Shown here piece by piece: positions 4,977 to 12,693 of a stretch of DNA of 64,000 bases; position 1 is the first letter of the stretch, and every line of letters begins with the position of its first letter. Origin of the DNA: Escherichia coli (GTDB lineage Bacteria; Pseudomonadota; Gammaproteobacteria; Enterobacterales; Enterobacteriaceae). The DNA lies in the NCBI RefSeq assembly GCF_024502345.1, contig NZ_JALDNN010000001.1; one strand, 5' to 3'. Both the position numbers and the translations under genes were made by a program. The notes below the pieces were generated by a model. That model made no database searches. It had not been told where the DNA came from and saw nothing but the letters and a program-made list of their open reading frames with translations.

Positions 4977-5969
4977 TTACAGCTCGCTCTCTTTGTGGAA
5001 TCCGTCTTTAACTACCGTGTCTTTGATGTTGTTTTTATTCACATCGATCGGTGTCAGGAGGCGGGAGGGCACATCTTTCAGGCCATTATTCAGTGTGGTA
5101 TCTGCTTTTGGTTCCTGACCATTGCCCAACTCAACGGCAATTTCTGCGGCAGTATTTGCCAGCAATGTAATAGGTTTATACACCGTCATAGTTTGCGTAC
5201 CGGCAGCAATACGTTTAATACCTGCGAGATCCGCATCCTGGCCGGAAATTGCTACTTTCCCTGATAAACCTTGCGCGCTTAATGCCTGAATTGCCCCACC
5301 TGCGGTGGCATCGTTTGAGGCAACTACAGCATCAATTTTGTTATTATTGGCGGTTAGCGCGTTTTCCATAATTTTCAATGCGTTTTCCGGTAACCAGCCA
5401 TCAACCCATTGGTCACCAACGACTTTAATTTTTCCGGAATCAACGTAAGGTTTTAACACTTTCATTTGTCCGGCGCGGAACAGCTTGGCGTTGTTATCTA
5501 CCGGCGAGCCGCCCATCAGGAAGTAATTACCTTGCGGAACAATATCGACCAGGGCTTTTGCCTGCAGTTCACCGACTTTTTCGTTATCGAAAGAAATATA
5601 AAAATCGATATCCGCATCGTTAATCATACGGTCGTAAGCTAATACTTTAATGCCTTCTTGTTTGGCTTCTTTTACAACGTTACTTAATACCTGACCGTTA
5701 TACGGAATAATGACAAGAACATCGACACCCCGGTTAATCATGTTTTCAATCTGCGACATTTGTGTTTCTTCATTGCCATTTGCAGACTGTACAAATACTT
5801 TCGCGCCGAGAGATTCTGCCTTTTTCACAAAAATATCTCGATCTTTTTGCCAGCGTTCAAGACGGAGATCATCAATCGCCATACCTATTTTGACTTCTTT
5901 GGCGTGTGCCGCAACGTTGGTAAGCAGAAGTGAGGTGCAAAGGGTGAGTAGAATGTTCTTTATTTTCAT
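4977..5969 (-). CDS. xylF: D-xylose-binding periplasmic protein XylF, 330 aa
   Basis: ORF track gives 356 aa; start placed at internal Met (MKIKNILLTL...) giving signal peptide and 330 aa. Confidence 0.93.
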   Translation of the reverse strand: MKIKNILLTLCTSLLLTNVAAHAKEVKIGMAIDDLRLERWQKDRDIFVKKAESLGAKVFVQSANGNEETQMSQIENMINRGVDVLVIIPYNGQVLSNVVKEAKQEGIKVLAYDRMINDADIDFYISFDNEKVGELQAKALVDIVPQGNYFLMGGSPVDNNAKLFRAGQMKVLKPYVDSGKIKVVGDQWVDGWLPENALKIMENALTANNNKIDAVVASNDATAGGAIQALSAQGLSGKVAISGQDADLAGIKRIAAGTQTMTVYKPITLLANTAAEIAVELGNGQEPKADTTLNNGLKDVPSRLLTPIDVNKNNIKDTVVKDGFHKESEL

Positions 5970-6334
5970 GGTGTAGGGCCTTCTGTAGTTAGAGGACAGC
6001 TTTAATAAGTAACAATCACCGCGATAAACGTAACCAATTTTTAGCAACTAAACAGGGGAAAACAATTACAGATTTTTATCTTTCGATTACGATTTTTGGT
6101 TTATTTCTTGATTTATGACCGAGATCTTACTTTTGTTGCGCAATTGTACTTATTGCATTTTTATCTTCGAGGAATTACCCAGTTTCATCATCCCATTTTA
6201 TTTTGCGAGCGAGCGCACACTTGTGAATTATCTCAATAGCAGTGTGAAATAACATAATTGAGCAACTGAAAGGGAGTGCCCAATATTACGACATCATCCA
6301 TCACCCGCGGCATTACCTGATTATGGAGTTCAAT
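5970..6334. promoter_or_regulatory. Divergent xylF / xylA control region (XylR and CRP-dependent promoters)
   Basis: 365-bp AT-rich intergenic region between divergent xylF and xylA; CRP-like half sites tgtga-N6-tcaat near 6222-6237; exact XylR sites not resolved by eye. Confidence 0.6.
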
Positions 6335-7657
6335 ATGCAAGCCTATTTTGACCAGCTCGATCGCGTTCGTTATGAAGGCTCAAAATCCTCAAACCCGTTA
6401 GCATTCCGTCACTACAATCCCGACGAACTGGTGTTGGGTAAGCGTATGGAAGAGCACTTGCGTTTTGCCGCCTGCTACTGGCACACCTTCTGCTGGAACG
6501 GGGCGGACATGTTTGGTGTGGGGGCGTTTAATCGTCCGTGGCAGCAGCCTGGTGAGGCACTGGCGTTGGCGAAGCGTAAAGCAGATGTCGCATTTGAGTT
6601 TTTCCACAAGTTACATGTGCCATTTTATTGCTTCCACGATGTGGATGTTTCCCCTGAGGGCGCGTCGTTAAAAGAGTACATCAATAATTTTGCGCAAATG
6701 GTTGATGTCCTGGCAGCCAAGCAAGAAGAGAGCGGCGTGAAGCTGCTGTGGGGAACCGCTAACTGCTTTACAAACCCTCGCTATGGCGCGGGTGCGGCGA
6801 CGAACCCAGATCCTGAAGTCTTCAGCTGGGCGGCAACGCAAGTTGTTACAGCGATGGAAGCAACCCATAAATTGGGCGGTGAAAACTATGTCCTGTGGGG
6901 TGGTCGTGAAGGTTACGAAACGCTGTTAAATACCGACTTGCGTCAGGAGCGTGAACAACTGGGCCGCTTTATGCAGATGGTGGTTGAGCATAAACATAAA
7001 ATCGGCTTCCAGGGCACGTTGCTTATCGAACCGAAACCGCAAGAACCGACTAAACATCAATATGATTACGATGCCGCGACGGTCTATGGCTTCCTGAAAC
7101 AGTTTGGTCTGGAAAAAGAGATTAAACTGAACATTGAAGCTAACCACGCGACGCTGGCAGGTCACTCTTTCCATCATGAAATAGCCACCGCCATTGCGCT
7201 TGGCCTGTTCGGTTCTGTCGACGCCAACCGTGGCGATGCGCAACTGGGCTGGGACACCGACCAGTTCCCGAACAGTGTGGAAGAGAATGCGCTGGTGATG
7301 TATGAAATTCTCAAAGCAGGCGGTTTCACCACCGGTGGTCTGAACTTCGATGCCAAAGTACGTCGTCAAAGTACTGATAAATATGATCTGTTTTACGGTC
7401 ATATCGGCGCGATGGATACGATGGCACTGGCGCTGAAAATTGCAGCGCGCATGATTGAAGATGGCGAGCTGGATAAACGCATCGCGCAGCGTTATTCCGG
7501 CTGGAATAGCGAATTGGGCCAGCAAATCCTGAAAGGCCAAATGTCACTGGCAGATTTAGCCAAATATGCTCAGGAACATAATTTGTCTCCGGTGCATCAG
7601 AGTGGTCGCCAGGAGCAACTGGAAAATCTGGTAAATCATTATCTGTTCGACAAATAA
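6335..7657 (+). CDS. xylA: Xylose isomerase XylA, 440 aa
   Basis: Start at MQAYFDQ with tggag RBS 7 nt upstream; protein is unmistakable xylose isomerase ([11 protein letters not shown] motifs). Confidence 0.95.
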
Positions 7658-7728
7658 CGGCTAACTGTGCAGTCCGTTGGCCCGGTTATCGGTAGCGATA
7701 CCGGGCATTTTTTTAAGGAACGATCGAT

Positions 7729-9183
7729 ATGTATATCGGGATAGATCTTGGCACCTCGGGCGTAAAAGTTATTTTGCTCAACGAGCAGGGTGAGGTGGTT
7801 GCTTCGCAAACGGAAAAGCTGACCGTTTCGCGCCCGCATCCACTCTGGTCGGAACAAGACCCGGAACAGTGGTGGCAGGCAACTGATCGCGCAATGAAAG
7901 CTCTGGGCGATCAGCATTCTCTGCAGGACGTTAAAGCATTGGGTATTGCCGGCCAGATGCATGGAGCAACCTTACTGGATGCTCAACAACGGGTATTGCG
8001 CCCTGCCATTTTGTGGAACGACGGGCGCTGTGCGCAAGAGTGCACTTTGCTGGAAGCGAGAGTTCCGCAATCACGAGTGATTACCGGCAACCTGATGATG
8101 CCCGGATTTACTGCGCCTAAATTGCTATGGGTTCAGCGGCATGAGCCGGAGATATTCCGTCAAATCGACAAAGTATTATTACCGAAAGATTACTTGCGTC
8201 TGCGTATGACGGGGGAGTTTGCCAGCGATATGTCTGACGCAGCTGGCACCATGTGGCTGGATGTCGCAAAGCGTGACTGGAGTGACGTCATGCTGCAGGC
8301 TTGCGACTTATCTCGTGACCAGATGCCCGCATTATACGAAGGCAGCGAAATTACTGGTGCTTTGTTACCTGAAGTTGCGAAAGCGTGGGGTATGGCGACG
8401 GTGCCAGTTGTCGCAGGCGGTGGCGACAATGCAGCTGGTGCAGTTGGTGTGGGAATGGTTGATGCTAATCAGGCAATGTTATCGCTGGGGACGTCGGGGG
8501 TCTATTTTGCTGTCAGCGAAGGGTTCTTAAGCAAGCCAGAAAGCGCTGTACACAGCTTTTGCCATGCGCTACCGCAGCGTTGGCATTTAATGTCTGTAAT
8601 GCTGAGTGCAGCATCGTGTCTGGATTGGGTCGCGAAATTAACCGGCCTGTGCAATGTCCCAGCTTTAATCGCTGCAGCTCAACAGGCTGATGAAAGTGCC
8701 GAGCCAGTTTGGTTTCTGCCTTATCTTTCCGGCGAGCGTACACCACACAATAATCCCCAGGCGAAGGGGGTTTTCTTTGGTTTGACTCATCAACATGGCC
8801 CCAATGAACTGGCGCGAGCAGTGCTGGAAGGCGTGGGTTATGCGCTGGCAGATGGCATGGATGTCGTGCATGCCTGCGGCATTAAACCGCAAAGTGTTAC
8901 GTTGATTGGTGGCGGGGCGCGTAGTGAGTACTGGCGTCAGATGCTGGCGGATATCAGCGGTCAGCAGCTCGATTACCGTACGGGGGGGGATGTGGGGCCA
9001 GCACTGGGCGCAGCAAGGCTGGCGCAGATTGCGGCGAATCCAGAGAAATCGCTCATTGAGTTGTTGCCGCAGCTACCGTTAGAACAGTCGCATCTACCAG
9101 ATGCGCAGCGTTATGCCGCTTATCAGCCACGACGTGAAACGTTCCGTCGCCTCTATCAGCAACTTCTGCCATTAATGGCGTAA
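7729..9183 (+). CDS. xylB: Xylulokinase XylB, 484 aa
   Basis: 484-aa FGGY-family sugar kinase ORF immediately downstream of xylA. Confidence 0.95.
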   Translation: MYIGIDLGTSGVKVILLNEQGEVVASQTEKLTVSRPHPLWSEQDPEQWWQATDRAMKALGDQHSLQDVKALGIAGQMHGATLLDAQQRVLRPAILWNDGRCAQECTLLEARVPQSRVITGNLMMPGFTAPKLLWVQRHEPEIFRQIDKVLLPKDYLRLRMTGEFASDMSDAAGTMWLDVAKRDWSDVMLQACDLSRDQMPALYEGSEITGALLPEVAKAWGMATVPVVAGGGDNAAGAVGVGMVDANQAMLSLGTSGVYFAVSEGFLSKPESAVHSFCHALPQRWHLMSVMLSAASCLDWVAKLTGLCNVPALIAAAQQADESAEPVWFLPYLSGERTPHNNPQAKGVFFGLTHQHGPNELARAVLEGVGYALADGMDVVHACGIKPQSVTLIGGGARSEYWRQMLADISGQQLDYRTGGDVGPALGAARLAQIAANPEKSLIELLPQLPLEQSHLPDAQRYAAYQPRRETFRRLYQQLLPLMA

Positions 9184-9351
9184 ACGTTATCCCCTGCCTG
9201 ACCGGGTGGGGGATAATTCACATCTATATATCTCACTAATTAATTAATATTTAGTATGAATTTATTCTGAAAATCATTTGTTAATGGCATTTTTCAGTTT
9301 TGTCTTTCGTTGGTTACTCGTAATGTATCGCTGGTAGATATGGAGATCGTT

Positions 9352-9693
9352 ATGAAAACCTCAAAAACTGTGGCAAAACTATTATTTGTTGTCGGGGCGC
9401 TGGTTTATCTGGTTGGGCTATGGATCTCATGCCCATTGTTGAGTGGAAAAGGCTATTTTCTTGGCGTGTTAATGACAGCAACTTTTGGCAACTATGCATA
9501 TCTTCGCGCAGAAAAACTCGGGCAATTGGATAATTTTTTTACCCATATTTGCCAGTTAGTTGCGTTAATCACTATCGGTCTCTTGTTTATCGGTGTTTTA
9601 AATGCACCTATCAATGCTTATGAAATGGTGATCTACCCCATCGCCTTTTTTGTCTGCTTGTTTGGTCAAATGCGTTTGTTTCGCTCGGTATGA
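9352..9693 (+). CDS. yiaB: Small inner-membrane protein YiaB (YiaAB two-helix family), 113 aa
   Basis: Start chosen at MKTSKTVAKLL with ggag RBS; ORF track start 9310 probably too far upstream. Confidence 0.8.
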   Translation: MKTSKTVAKLLFVVGALVYLVGLWISCPLLSGKGYFLGVLMTATFGNYAYLRAEKLGQLDNFFTHICQLVALITIGLLFIGVLNAPINAYEMVIYPIAFFVCLFGQMRLFRSV

Positions 9694-9738
9694 GCAACAT
9701 AAAGCTCTTACACATTCAGGAATGAAAGGAATACTGTG

Positions 9739-10176
9739 ATGGACAACAAAATATCAACCTATTCACCCGCCTTTAGTATTGTGTCATGGATAGCTCTCGT
9801 TGGTGGTATCGTTACCTATCTGTTAGGGCTATGGAATGCAGAGATGCAGTTAAATGAAAAAGGGTATTATTTTGCCGTACTGGTGTTAGGACTGTTTTCT
9901 GCTGCGTCTTATCAAAAGACCGTTCGGGACAAGTATGAAGGCATACCGACCACTTCCATTTATTATATGACCTGCCTGACTGTCTTTATTATCTCTGTTG
10001 CATTACTGATGGTAGGTCTGTGGAATGCGACATTATTACTCAGTGAAAAAGGTTTTTATGGACTGGCTTTCTTCTTAAGCTTGTTTGGTGCAGTAGCGGT
10101 GCAGAAGAATATTCGTGATGCCGGAATAAACCCGCCAAAAGAAACACAGGTTACCCAGGAAGAATACAGCGAATAA
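9739..10176 (+). CDS. yiaA: Small inner-membrane protein YiaA (two YiaAB repeats), 145 aa
   Basis: ATG at 9739 (ORF track begins at GTG 9736); contains two copies of the GLWNA...EKG(Y/F)Y module. Confidence 0.8.
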
Positions 10177-10217
10177 TTCACGTAAGCCCGGTCAGTCCAA
10201 TGTGAACGGGCTTTTAC

Positions 10218-11213
10218 TTAACTCACTAATCTGTTTCTGTCGATTCGTTGTACCAGCATAGAAAGTAACAAACTCGCTGCCAACGTCGCGCAAAAGATCC
10301 AAATAATATCCAGTATTGGCCAATTTTTAAGCTCAATTCCCCGGGTGCGCAGCGCATGGATAATCAAGGCGTGGAATCCGTATATACCCAATGAATGGCG
10401 GGAGATTAAGCCAAGTCCGCGAATGGTACGCGTATCCAGCGTGTTTTTAACCAGAGTCAATAGCGCGATTGCGCAGATAAAAACCATCGGCCCACAGTAA
10501 AGATACCAGGTATCGGCAAAATTTCCGCGCCACTGCAATTCATATAATGTCCCGCGAGAGATAATAAAAACCCCCGTCGCAAACAGCGCGGCGCTCACCC
10601 ACGACAGTGCTTTATGCTGTGTGTCCATCATCCCTATAGCGCGGCCCAACATGCCATACAGAATGTAGTAAAAAGTATCGCCATTGATATATAAGTTAAT
10701 TGGCAGCCATTCAAAACCGTCAATTTTCTGCGGCACTGTGTTTGGGTTAGCGATAATGCCAATCACCGCCATTAGCACCAGCAACATTTTTCCGCCGACG
10801 TTCTTCACCTGAATCAGCGGTGAAACCAGATAAATCACCGCAATCGCGAAGAAAAACCACAAGTGGTAAAACACTGGCTTTTGCAGCAGGTTTTTCAGCG
10901 CTAACTCCATATTGATGGAGGTAAACAGCGCAATGTAGAGCAGTGCGATTGCGCTATAAAAAATCAGACATAAGCCGATACGCAAGAAATGGCGCGGCTG
11001 GGCGCTGCGTTCGCCAAAAAAGAGATAGCCGGAAATCATGAAAAATAGCGGCACGCTGACACGAGAGGCAGAATTCAGAACATTGGCGATATCCCATGTG
11101 ACGGGGCTAACACTATGAGCATTGGTCACATACCAGGTAGTGGTGTGAATCATCACCACCATTAAACACGCTATCCCTCGCAGGTTATCAATCCAGTAAA
11201 TTTTGGGCTGCAT
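10218..11213 (-). CDS. wecH: O-acetyltransferase WecH (acyltransferase-3 family membrane protein), 331 aa
   Basis: 331-aa polytopic membrane ORF; synteny between yiaA and ysaB. Confidence 0.85.
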
Positions 11214-11387
11214 CTGTGTCTCTGTATCTGGTTAAAAAAAGTCTGACCGATAAATCATTTGGTTGGCGCACTGGAATAATCTGAGTTTTATCACTACAGC
11301 TTATAGAGGCTTAAGGAAATTCGTAAGATATCAGCCACTATACCGATATAAATAATAAGACTCACCTGCAAACCAGACGGTAATTTA

Positions 11388-11687
11388 ATGATGATGAACG
11401 CTTTCTTTCCGGCAATGGCGCTTATGGTGCTAGTGGGTTGTTCTACACCGTCACCCGTGCAGAAAGCACAACGGGTAAAGGTTGATCCTCTGCGTTCGTT
11501 GAATATGGAAGCGTTATGCAAGGATCAGGCGGCAAAACGTTATAACACCGGCGAGCAAAAAATCGACGTCACCGCCTTCGAACAGTTCCAGGGAAGCTAT
11601 GAAATGCGCGGTTATACCTTCCGTAAAGAGCAGTTTGTCTGTTCTTTTGACGCAGATGGCCATTTTTTGCATCTTTCCATGCGTTAA
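11388..11687 (+). CDS. ysaB: Putative lipoprotein YsaB, 99 aa
   Basis: 99-aa ORF with lipoprotein signal (LVGCS lipobox). Confidence 0.75.
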   Translation: MMMNAFFPAMALMVLVGCSTPSPVQKAQRVKVDPLRSLNMEALCKDQAAKRYNTGEQKIDVTAFEQFQGSYEMRGYTFRKEQFVCSFDADGHFLHLSMR

Positions 11688-11781
11688 GCCCTGCTTTTTC
11701 CCGTTTCGTACTGTATATCTTCCATCCAGCGGGTATACTGATCCCTTCCTTTAAATCCACACGTATCCAGCACGAAATAAT

Positions 11782-12693
11782 ATGCAAAAGTTTGATACCA
11801 GGACCTTCCAGGGCTTGATCCTGACCTTACAGGATTACTGGGCTCGCCAGGGCTGCACCATTGTTCAACCATTGGACATGGAAGTCGGCGCGGGAACCTC
11901 TCACCCAATGACCTGTCTGCGCGCGCTGGGGCCAGAACCGATGGCGGCTGCTTATGTTCAGCCTTCTCGTCGCCCGACCGATGGTCGCTACGGCGAAAAC
12001 CCCAACCGTTTACAGCACTACTATCAGTTCCAGGTGGTCATTAAGCCATCGCCGGACAATATTCAGGAGCTGTACCTCGGTTCTCTGAAAGAGCTGGGCA
12101 TGGACCCGACTATTCACGACATCCGTTTCGTGGAAGATAACTGGGAAAACCCGACTCTGGGTGCCTGGGGACTGGGCTGGGAAGTGTGGCTAAACGGCAT
12201 GGAAGTGACGCAGTTCACTTACTTCCAGCAGGTTGGTGGTCTGGAGTGTAAACCGGTTACCGGCGAGATCACCTACGGTCTGGAACGTCTGGCCATGTAC
12301 ATTCAGGGCGTAGACAGCGTTTACGACCTGGTCTGGAGCGACGGCCCGCTGGGTAAAACCACCTACGGCGACGTGTTCCATCAGAACGAAGTGGAGCAGT
12401 CCACTTACAACTTCGAATACGCGGATGTGGACTTCCTGTTCACCTGCTTTGAGCAGTACGAGAAAGAAGCGCAGCAGCTGCTGGCGCTGGAAAATCCGCT
12501 GCCGCTGCCAGCCTACGAGCGTATTCTGAAAGCCGCCCACAGCTTCAACCTGCTGGATGCGCGTAAAGCCATCTCCGTCACCGAGCGTCAGCGCTACATT
12601 CTGCGCATTCGCACCCTGACCAAAGCAGTGGCAGAAGCATACTACGCTTCCCGTGAAGCCCTCGGCTTCCCGATGTGCAACAAAGATAAGTAA
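11782..12693 (+). CDS. glyQ: Glycine--tRNA ligase alpha subunit GlyQ, 303 aa
   Basis: 303-aa ORF, highly conserved GlyQ sequence; immediately followed by glyS. Confidence 0.97.

Follow-up and report, generated by a model that had tools for sequence, protein, structure and literature searches.

The inner membrane proteins YiaB and YiaA of Escherichia coli give their name to the YiaAB family (PF05360; TCDB 9.B.44; NCBIfam NF008482 and NF008492), a textbook case of a two-transmembrane-segment (2-TMS) element duplicated to 4 TMS (PMC3061005). TCDB class 9.B holds putative transporters of unknown mechanism, and transport by YiaAB proteins is accordingly putative. One study treats yiaB and yiaA of E. 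coli as separate transcription units, each having its own promoter, and lists both as activated by a mutant Lrp (PMC10127797). Tandem duplication of a hairpin to give two parallel hairpins is likewise known from F-type ATPase c subunits and VIC-family channels (PMC3061005). While those proteins depend on an essential mid-membrane carboxylate or pore loop, the conserved residues of YiaA are interfacial, and profile and fold searches revealed no sequence similarity or significant structural similarity between YiaA or YiaB and either group. Small transmembrane (TM) hairpin proteins are also found in the type III secretion export gate (FliQ/SpaQ/EscS and FliP).

Here we analyze the name-giving genes of the family in a 64,000-nucleotide stretch of E. 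coli DNA (the window, whose numbering is used throughout). Compared with the YiaAB family of E. coli K-12 derivatives, the module, the two-copy architecture, and the chromosomal position are the same and nothing differs; Pfam, TCDB, NCBIfam, and the literature already cover the two genes, their domain, and how it was duplicated. The additions made here concern the order in time of the two duplications, the restricted and uneven occurrence of yiaB, an asymmetric loss of motifs from YiaB under continuing purifying selection, and the linkage of yiaA homologues to a regulator gene in Bacteroidota. As a discovery this carries little weight and it leaves current understanding unchanged, although it could guide a targeted experiment: YiaA and YiaB belong to the best-studied bacterium, the conservation of YiaA across phyla is striking for a 145-residue membrane protein, and yiaB cleanly illustrates, in nature, how a young paralogue can lose the cytoplasmic motifs of its family and still be under selection.

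The segment is chromosomal, with the gene order xylA, xylB, yiaB, yiaA, wecH, ysaB, glyQ, glyS. Coordinates of the features discussed below are summarized in Table 1. Position 9352 is the first base of the yiaB ATG and position 10176 the final base of the yiaA stop codon, such that the interval delimited by the first-pass annotation is exact. Of 5426 complete E. coli genomes, 5425 contained the segment in a megablast search with positions 9200-10250, and in the top matches (99.9% identical) RefSeq annotates YiaB and YiaA at identical positions, flanked by xylB and wecH. Each protein scored best against its own NCBIfam model and above the curated cut-off: YiaA reached 197.8 bits with the YiaA model NF008482 (cut-off 150; YiaB 46.9 bits), and YiaB 169.8 bits with the YiaB model NF008492 (cut-off 130; YiaA 75.9 bits). 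Relative to the K-12 derivative XL1-Blue, YiaB differs at three residues and YiaA is identical. Because Pfam, NCBIfam, and RefSeq annotation agree, the names yiaB and yiaA proposed from the letters alone are correct, as is their placement between xylB and wecH (ORF list and RefSeq gene order), and we regard it as highly probable that the interval represents the known E. coli yiaB and yiaA with a two-step duplication history.

Table 1. Features of the yiaB-yiaA segment (window coordinates) and regulator genes adjoining yiaA homologues in Bacteroidota (coordinates of the individual loci).
Feature	Coordinates	Strand	Description	Basis
xylB	7729-9183	+		ORF list
xylB-yiaB intergenic region	9184..9351	+	168 bp, AT-rich	sequence read
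yiaB CDS	9352-9693	+	113 aa, inner membrane protein YiaB	ORF; NCBIfam NF008492; RefSeq
YiaB module 1	9367..9504	+	residues 6-51; helix, GLWISCPLLSGKGYF turn, helix	PF05360; AlphaFold2
YiaB module 2	9541..9669	+	residues 64-106; degenerate, without W, K-G, and QKxxRD	PF05360 (sub-threshold)
yiaB-yiaA spacer	9694..9738	+	45 bp; AAGGA 5' of the yiaA start	sequence read
yiaA CDS	9739-10176	+	145 aa, inner membrane protein YiaA	NCBIfam NF008482; PF05360
YiaA module 1	9772..9930	+	residues 12-64; helix, 15-residue stretch, helix, QKTVRD	PF05360 (positions 1-53)
YiaA module 2	9961..10119	+	residues 75-127; helix, 15-residue stretch, helix, QKNIRD	PF05360
GC-rich hairpin, then UUUU	10182..10217	.	41-bp gap between the convergent yiaA and wecH stops	RNA fold
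wecH	10218-11213	-	convergent with yiaA	ORF list
Crp/Fnr-type gene upstream of yiaA homologue	L039 4282-4845; L046 4351-4914; L064 4341-4904; L081 4331-4894; L088 4330-4893; eight more loci	same strand as the homologue	Bacteroidota	Pfam

The first-pass annotation had read the two genes as products of an internal and a tandem duplication of a small two-helix membrane module, with two copies in YiaA and at least one in YiaB. Scored as whole proteins against PF05360 ("yiaA/B two helix domain"; gathering cut-off 26.6 bits), YiaA reached 135.5 bits (E 7e-40) and YiaB 44.3 bits (E 2.1e-11), each over two stretches, and the profile search that had been proposed as a check thus hits both proteins above the cut-off. 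Considered module by module, the N-terminal module of YiaA (YiaA-N) scored 77 bits over the full length of the profile, its C-terminal module (YiaA-C) 69.5 bits, and YiaB-N 40.1 bits (E 4.4e-10), with YiaB-C falling below the cut-off at 15.1 bits (E 0.027). BLASTP aligned YiaB to YiaA over 111 collinear residues (31% identity, E 8e-13). Local alignments of single modules, scored against 2000 composition-preserving shuffles, gave z-values of 15.7 for YiaA-N/YiaA-C, 12.1 for YiaB-C/YiaA-C, 10.3 for YiaB-N/YiaA-N, and 7.3 for YiaB-N/YiaA-C, and in none of these four pairs did any of the 2000 shuffles equal the observed score; by the same measure, similarity was undetectable for YiaB-N/YiaB-C (z -0.2) and YiaB-C/YiaA-N (z 0.6). 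Relics of the repeat are also in register at the DNA level, with GLW codons at 9410, 9821, and 10010 and (E/G)KG codons at 9444, 9855, and 10044, both series being spaced by 411 nt and 189 nt (63 codons); module 2 of E. coli YiaA starts exactly 63 residues after the start of module 1.

The repeat is therefore real and well above chance, and the proposed self-alignment bears out the original reading: internal duplication of the module is upheld by the YiaA-N/YiaA-C alignment and the two YiaA profile scores, which also show that YiaA holds two copies, and tandem duplication of the gene by the BLASTP match and the module-wise likeness of N to N and C to C. The copy number given for YiaB held insofar as one copy is clear, but it fell short in that the actual number is two, the second being degenerate. 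Both proteins agree with the PF05360 definition (two TM helices and a conserved linker, the helices being predicted here), and the TCDB 9.B.44 definition (4 TMS arising from duplication of 2 TMS) describes YiaA directly; in YiaB the second element scores below the cut-off by itself but aligns significantly to the second element of YiaA. An alternative in which the repeat reflects mere compositional similarity between hydrophobic helices, without homology, could draw on the two module pairs that align no better than shuffles, and on the E-values of 0.004-0.2 reached by unrelated hairpin proteins (FliP, EscS, SpaQ, and EamA). It is nevertheless already refuted by the shuffle tests, the module comparison, and the PF05360 scores, given that four module pairs beat composition-preserving shuffles (z 7-16), identical polar motifs recur at a constant 63-residue offset, a curated Pfam domain lies above its cut-off in three modules, and the DNA relics are in register; we consider its probability negligible.

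To derive the anatomy of the module, 38 YiaA-type proteins representing many phyla were aligned. Helix a carries one conserved face (F12, S16, W17, L20, G23, Y27, G30, and L31) and leads into a turn of four residues bordered by GLWN and L-(N/S)-EKG-(Y/F)-Y (consensus GLWN-x6-EKG(Y/F)Y), after which helix b and a near-invariant QK-x-(V/I)-RD motif close each YiaA-type module. The pattern originally given for the module had its elements right and its spacers wrong, the true values being 6, 7, and 5 rather than 5-8, 10, and 4, and taken as a literal regular expression it matches neither YiaA nor YiaB. It was also mistaken in ascribing EKG(Y/F)Y and a Q/R-K ending to the YiaB copy, which reads GKGYF and ends in L-R. 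With the spacers set to 6/7/5 and the residue classes relaxed (GKGYF, TF, LR), the pattern matches at residues 29 and 92 of YiaA and at residue 21 of YiaB.

Structure prediction with AlphaFold2 yielded confident models for both proteins, with helices at residues 10-33, 38-66, 73-96, and 101-129 of YiaA (pLDDT 92, pTM 0.82) and at 5-26, 30-55, 61-84, and 89-112 of YiaB (pLDDT 86.5). As modelled, YiaA and YiaB are both two-module, four-helix proteins composed of two parallel hairpins, and the predicted pair of helices in every module is in keeping with the two-helix unit described by the first-pass annotation. Lysine and arginine are concentrated on the side of the N-terminus, linker, and C-terminal tail (7 residues in YiaA and 7 in YiaB, vs. 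2 and 1, respectively, in the two turns), and by the positive-inside rule we therefore infer an N-in/C-in topology for both proteins, which would render the conserved turns periplasmic and place the QKxxRD motifs at the cytoplasmic membrane surface. Experimental topology for YiaA and YiaB reportedly comes from a global study of E. coli membrane protein topology. Within the family alignment, conservation is periodic on one face of each of helices 1 and 3 (p 0.013 and 0.018 vs. shuffles) and is gathered at both ends of helices 2 and 4, and no strongly conserved charged residue is found mid-membrane.

Foldseek comparison of the models to the PDB returned nothing at E <= 0.001, and since a profile search of PDB sequences gave only SpaQ (E 0.21), the family appears to have no solved relative. 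FliQ/SpaQ/EscS and FliP were the only matches outside YiaAB, all of them sub-threshold (E 0.004-0.2; FliP/FliQ-like scores of, for example, 16-17 bits vs. curated cut-offs of 108-217). Kinship with FliP/FliQ-like proteins was rejected as compositional on account of the sub-threshold scores and the lack of a shared motif; no flagellar or injectisome context was found.

The order of the two duplications was approached through module identities over 39 YiaA-type sequences, including the YiaA of the window. N modules are 48% identical to one another and C modules 45%, while N and C modules are only 33% identical, equally so within one protein and between proteins, which places the hairpin duplication before the spread of the family and indicates that no concerted evolution has taken place. 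YiaB-N averaged scores of 53 with N and 27 with C modules, and YiaB-C of 25 and 54, respectively, such that YiaB is a copy of a gene that already encoded four helices; the ten best-scoring YiaA relatives of YiaB are all from Enterobacterales. Taken as a sequence-based history, these comparisons show the hairpin duplication as an ancient event that occurred once, converting a single two-helix hairpin into the four-helix protein that spread across many phyla, and the yiaB/yiaA duplication as a recent one, in which the whole four-helix gene was copied in tandem within some Enterobacteriaceae. The copy yiaB then diverged fast: the QKxxRD motifs of both modules and the EKG turn of the second were lost, and a conserved CPLLSGKGYF turn of its own was acquired while purifying selection continued.

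The distribution of yiaB is narrow. A database search recovered just 141 relatives of YiaB, which belong to Escherichia, Citrobacter, Klebsiella, and their near relatives, and among the loci compared the second tandem gene was present only in Escherichia, Citrobacter, Klebsiella, Salmonella, and Superficieibacter, with the order xylB-yiaB-yiaA-wecH kept in Citrobacter, Klebsiella pneumoniae, Salmonella, and Superficieibacter. It is also patchy: yiaA adjoins wecH without yiaB in Leclercia (L020), Phytobacter (L025 and L042), and strain LSJC7 (L024), and a single yiaA is found at another location in Yersinia, Serratia, Hafnia, Rouxiella, and Xenorhabdus. Citrobacter freundii (L004 5001-5354) and Klebsiella oxytoca (L005 5001-5381) have kept yiaB and lost yiaA from the slot between xylB and wecH, wecH abutting or overlapping the yiaB stop. 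Given that both yiaB-only and yiaA-only species exist, either paralogue can be lost.

Between E. coli and Citrobacter, YiaB proteins are 57-62% identical and YiaA proteins 83% identical, indicating that YiaB evolves faster. Neither of the two QKxxRD motifs of YiaA is left in YiaB, nor is the second EKG turn; the YiaB of Superficieibacter retains EKGYY and represents an intermediate state. Such losses could be taken to mean that yiaB is a functionless, decaying duplicate and a pseudogene in the making, as could the sub-threshold score of its second module, its much faster evolution, its absence from Leclercia, Phytobacter, and strain LSJC7, and the numerous truncated YiaB entries from E. coli. 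However, dN/dS within E. coli is 0.09-0.15 for yiaB (0-0.03 for yiaA), the frame is intact in Escherichia, Salmonella, Citrobacter, and Klebsiella, and the YiaB turn CPL(L/F)SGKGYFLGVL is near-invariant across genera among YiaB orthologues. Furthermore, C. freundii and K. oxytoca have retained yiaB while losing yiaA, and the predicted four-helix model of YiaB is a confident one. Because of the dN/dS values and the near-invariant turn, yiaB is judged to be under purifying selection and not decaying; the decay reading is already largely refuted and is in our estimation very improbable.

Many YiaB database entries from E. coli are 62-102 aa in length yet 96-100% identical over the part that is kept (P0341, P0343, P0354, and others); one of these, the 90-aa entry P0341, was found on 29 contigs. 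The short entries may correspond to frameshifted or differently started yiaB genes in some lineages, or to assembly or annotation fragments.

Beyond Enterobacteriaceae, the family reaches many phyla. When 1.84 billion cluster representatives were searched exhaustively with HMMER, only 524 clusters were detected at E <= 0.001, and among the best 150 of these 524 the complete members are mostly two-module proteins of 130-190 residues. Scanning a single genome for each species confirmed at least 583 relatives, with Enterobacterales, Betaproteobacteria, many Bacteroidota, Bacillus/Neobacillus, Chloroflexi, Acidobacteria, Verrucomicrobia, Desulfobacterota, and Campylobacterota among the matches listed. 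The relatives listed are 53-66% identical to E. coli YiaA, a figure to be read with the scan in mind, since this cross-phylum search (16-sequence alignment) took the two most conserved peptides as its seeds and over-represents well-conserved members. Two single loci were noted in passing. Citrobacter sp. Cu233 (L031 5001-5381) carries a YiaA-like gene of 65% identity at a locus without xylB or wecH, which may be an extra or transferred copy, and a betaproteobacterial metagenome-assembled genome has a second, weak YiaAB-like ORF (L037 7921-8451, minus strand) 2.5 kb from the first.

Gene context was surveyed by scanning the immediate neighbours (119 ORFs) at 61 loci outside Enterobacterales against Pfam. 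The sole recurrent neighbour family was cNMP_binding (Crp/Fnr-type, ~188 residues), encoded directly upstream of the yiaA homologue and on the same strand at 13 loci, each in a Bacteroidota genome (Table 1). Apart from this Bacteroidota gene, no conserved partner was found at the 61 loci.

A literature survey for yiaA, yiaB, YiaAB, PF05360, and the b-numbers returned no functional study and only list mentions without a defined phenotype; many apparent matches to "yiaA" were the misspelt phylotyping marker yjaA or a YIDD-to-YIAA mutant. The list mentions include yiaB as a first-round match, dropped in round 2, in an overexpression screen for Ala-Ala/alanine exporters (PMC10299036), yiaB in a chemical-genetic screen with silver (PMC6071238), a SoxS site close to yiaB in Salmonella (PMC10268841), a yiaA mutation that arose in acid-adapted evolved lines (bioRxiv 10.1101/659706), and a YiaA/B homologue induced 26-fold in a Variovorax biofilm (PMC7494200).

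Three proposals for function can be weighed against these data. The one we favour, tentatively, is that YiaA may be a self-associating accessory protein of the membrane or lipid interface, with YiaB as its specialised partner or variant. Presumably non-enzymatic and without a conserved operon partner, YiaA would probably be a self-contained membrane unit, in which the conserved residues would hold the hairpins together at the lipid-water interface on either side and self-association would occur through the small-residue faces of helices 1 and 3. Conservation is interfacial and on a small-residue face, not on mid-membrane polar residues, and for this reason an accessory protein is preferred over a classical pore. 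The second proposal is that oligomers of YiaA, with or without YiaB, form a small channel or secondary carrier, the glycine- and small-residue-rich helices surrounding a pore whose mouths would be formed by the interfacial E-K and QKxxRD residues. TCDB lists the family beside 2-TMS to 4-TMS channel-forming families (PMC3061005), the parallel two-hairpin repeat with small-residue helix faces would suit such an assembly, and YiaB was picked in the first round of the alanine/Ala-Ala export screen; set against this, the conserved mid-membrane polar residues, structural relatives, and operon context that would be expected are missing, and we consider a channel or carrier unlikely.

The third proposal is that YiaA-type proteins perform one specific membrane task through their invariant interfacial E-K and QKxxRD belts (ex. 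on a universal lipid or lipid-linked molecule), with enterobacterial YiaB as a dedicated variant that would form heteromers alongside YiaA. It is conceivable because E. coli YiaA is 53-66% identical to homologues across phyla (Bacteroidota, Bacillus, Chloroflexi, and Betaproteobacteria) with no conserved partner gene; we nonetheless regard it as distinctly unlikely.

Upstream of yiaB, a ribosome-binding site (GGAGA, 9341-9345) lies 6 nt before the ATG at 9352, making this ATG the likely start of the gene; the frame is open back to a TTG at 9310, from which a protein of 127 aa would result. The yiaB promoter is presumably contained in the xylB-yiaB intergenic region. For yiaA, the annotated start is the ATG at 9739, with an in-frame GTG 3 nt earlier at 9736. 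Promoter and terminator consensus scans of 9050-10350 produced counts at chance level, a sigma-70 consensus scan gave no plus-strand match upstream of yiaB or yiaA, and nothing in 5500-12500 matched Rfam at E <= 0.1. The hairpin between the convergent yiaA and wecH stops has a predicted folding energy of -14.5 kcal/mol (z -2.18 vs. shuffles) and was passed over by the terminator consensus scan because its loop is long; it is possibly a terminator common to both genes.

Sequence variation among E. coli strains is uneven across the segment. Between the window (9699-10098) and strain 18AR0845 (L002 3500-3900), synonymous divergence at yiaA is 0.35, as compared with 0.03-0.17 at xylA, xylB, yiaB, wecH, ysaB, and glyQ in the same strain pair, and local identity falls to 92% at yiaA. 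Strain 18AR0845 belongs to a divergent set of 1118 genomes, out of 5425, that are just 90-95% identical to the window over 9200-10250. This pattern suggests that yiaA is either an old divergent allele or the centre of a recombination tract.
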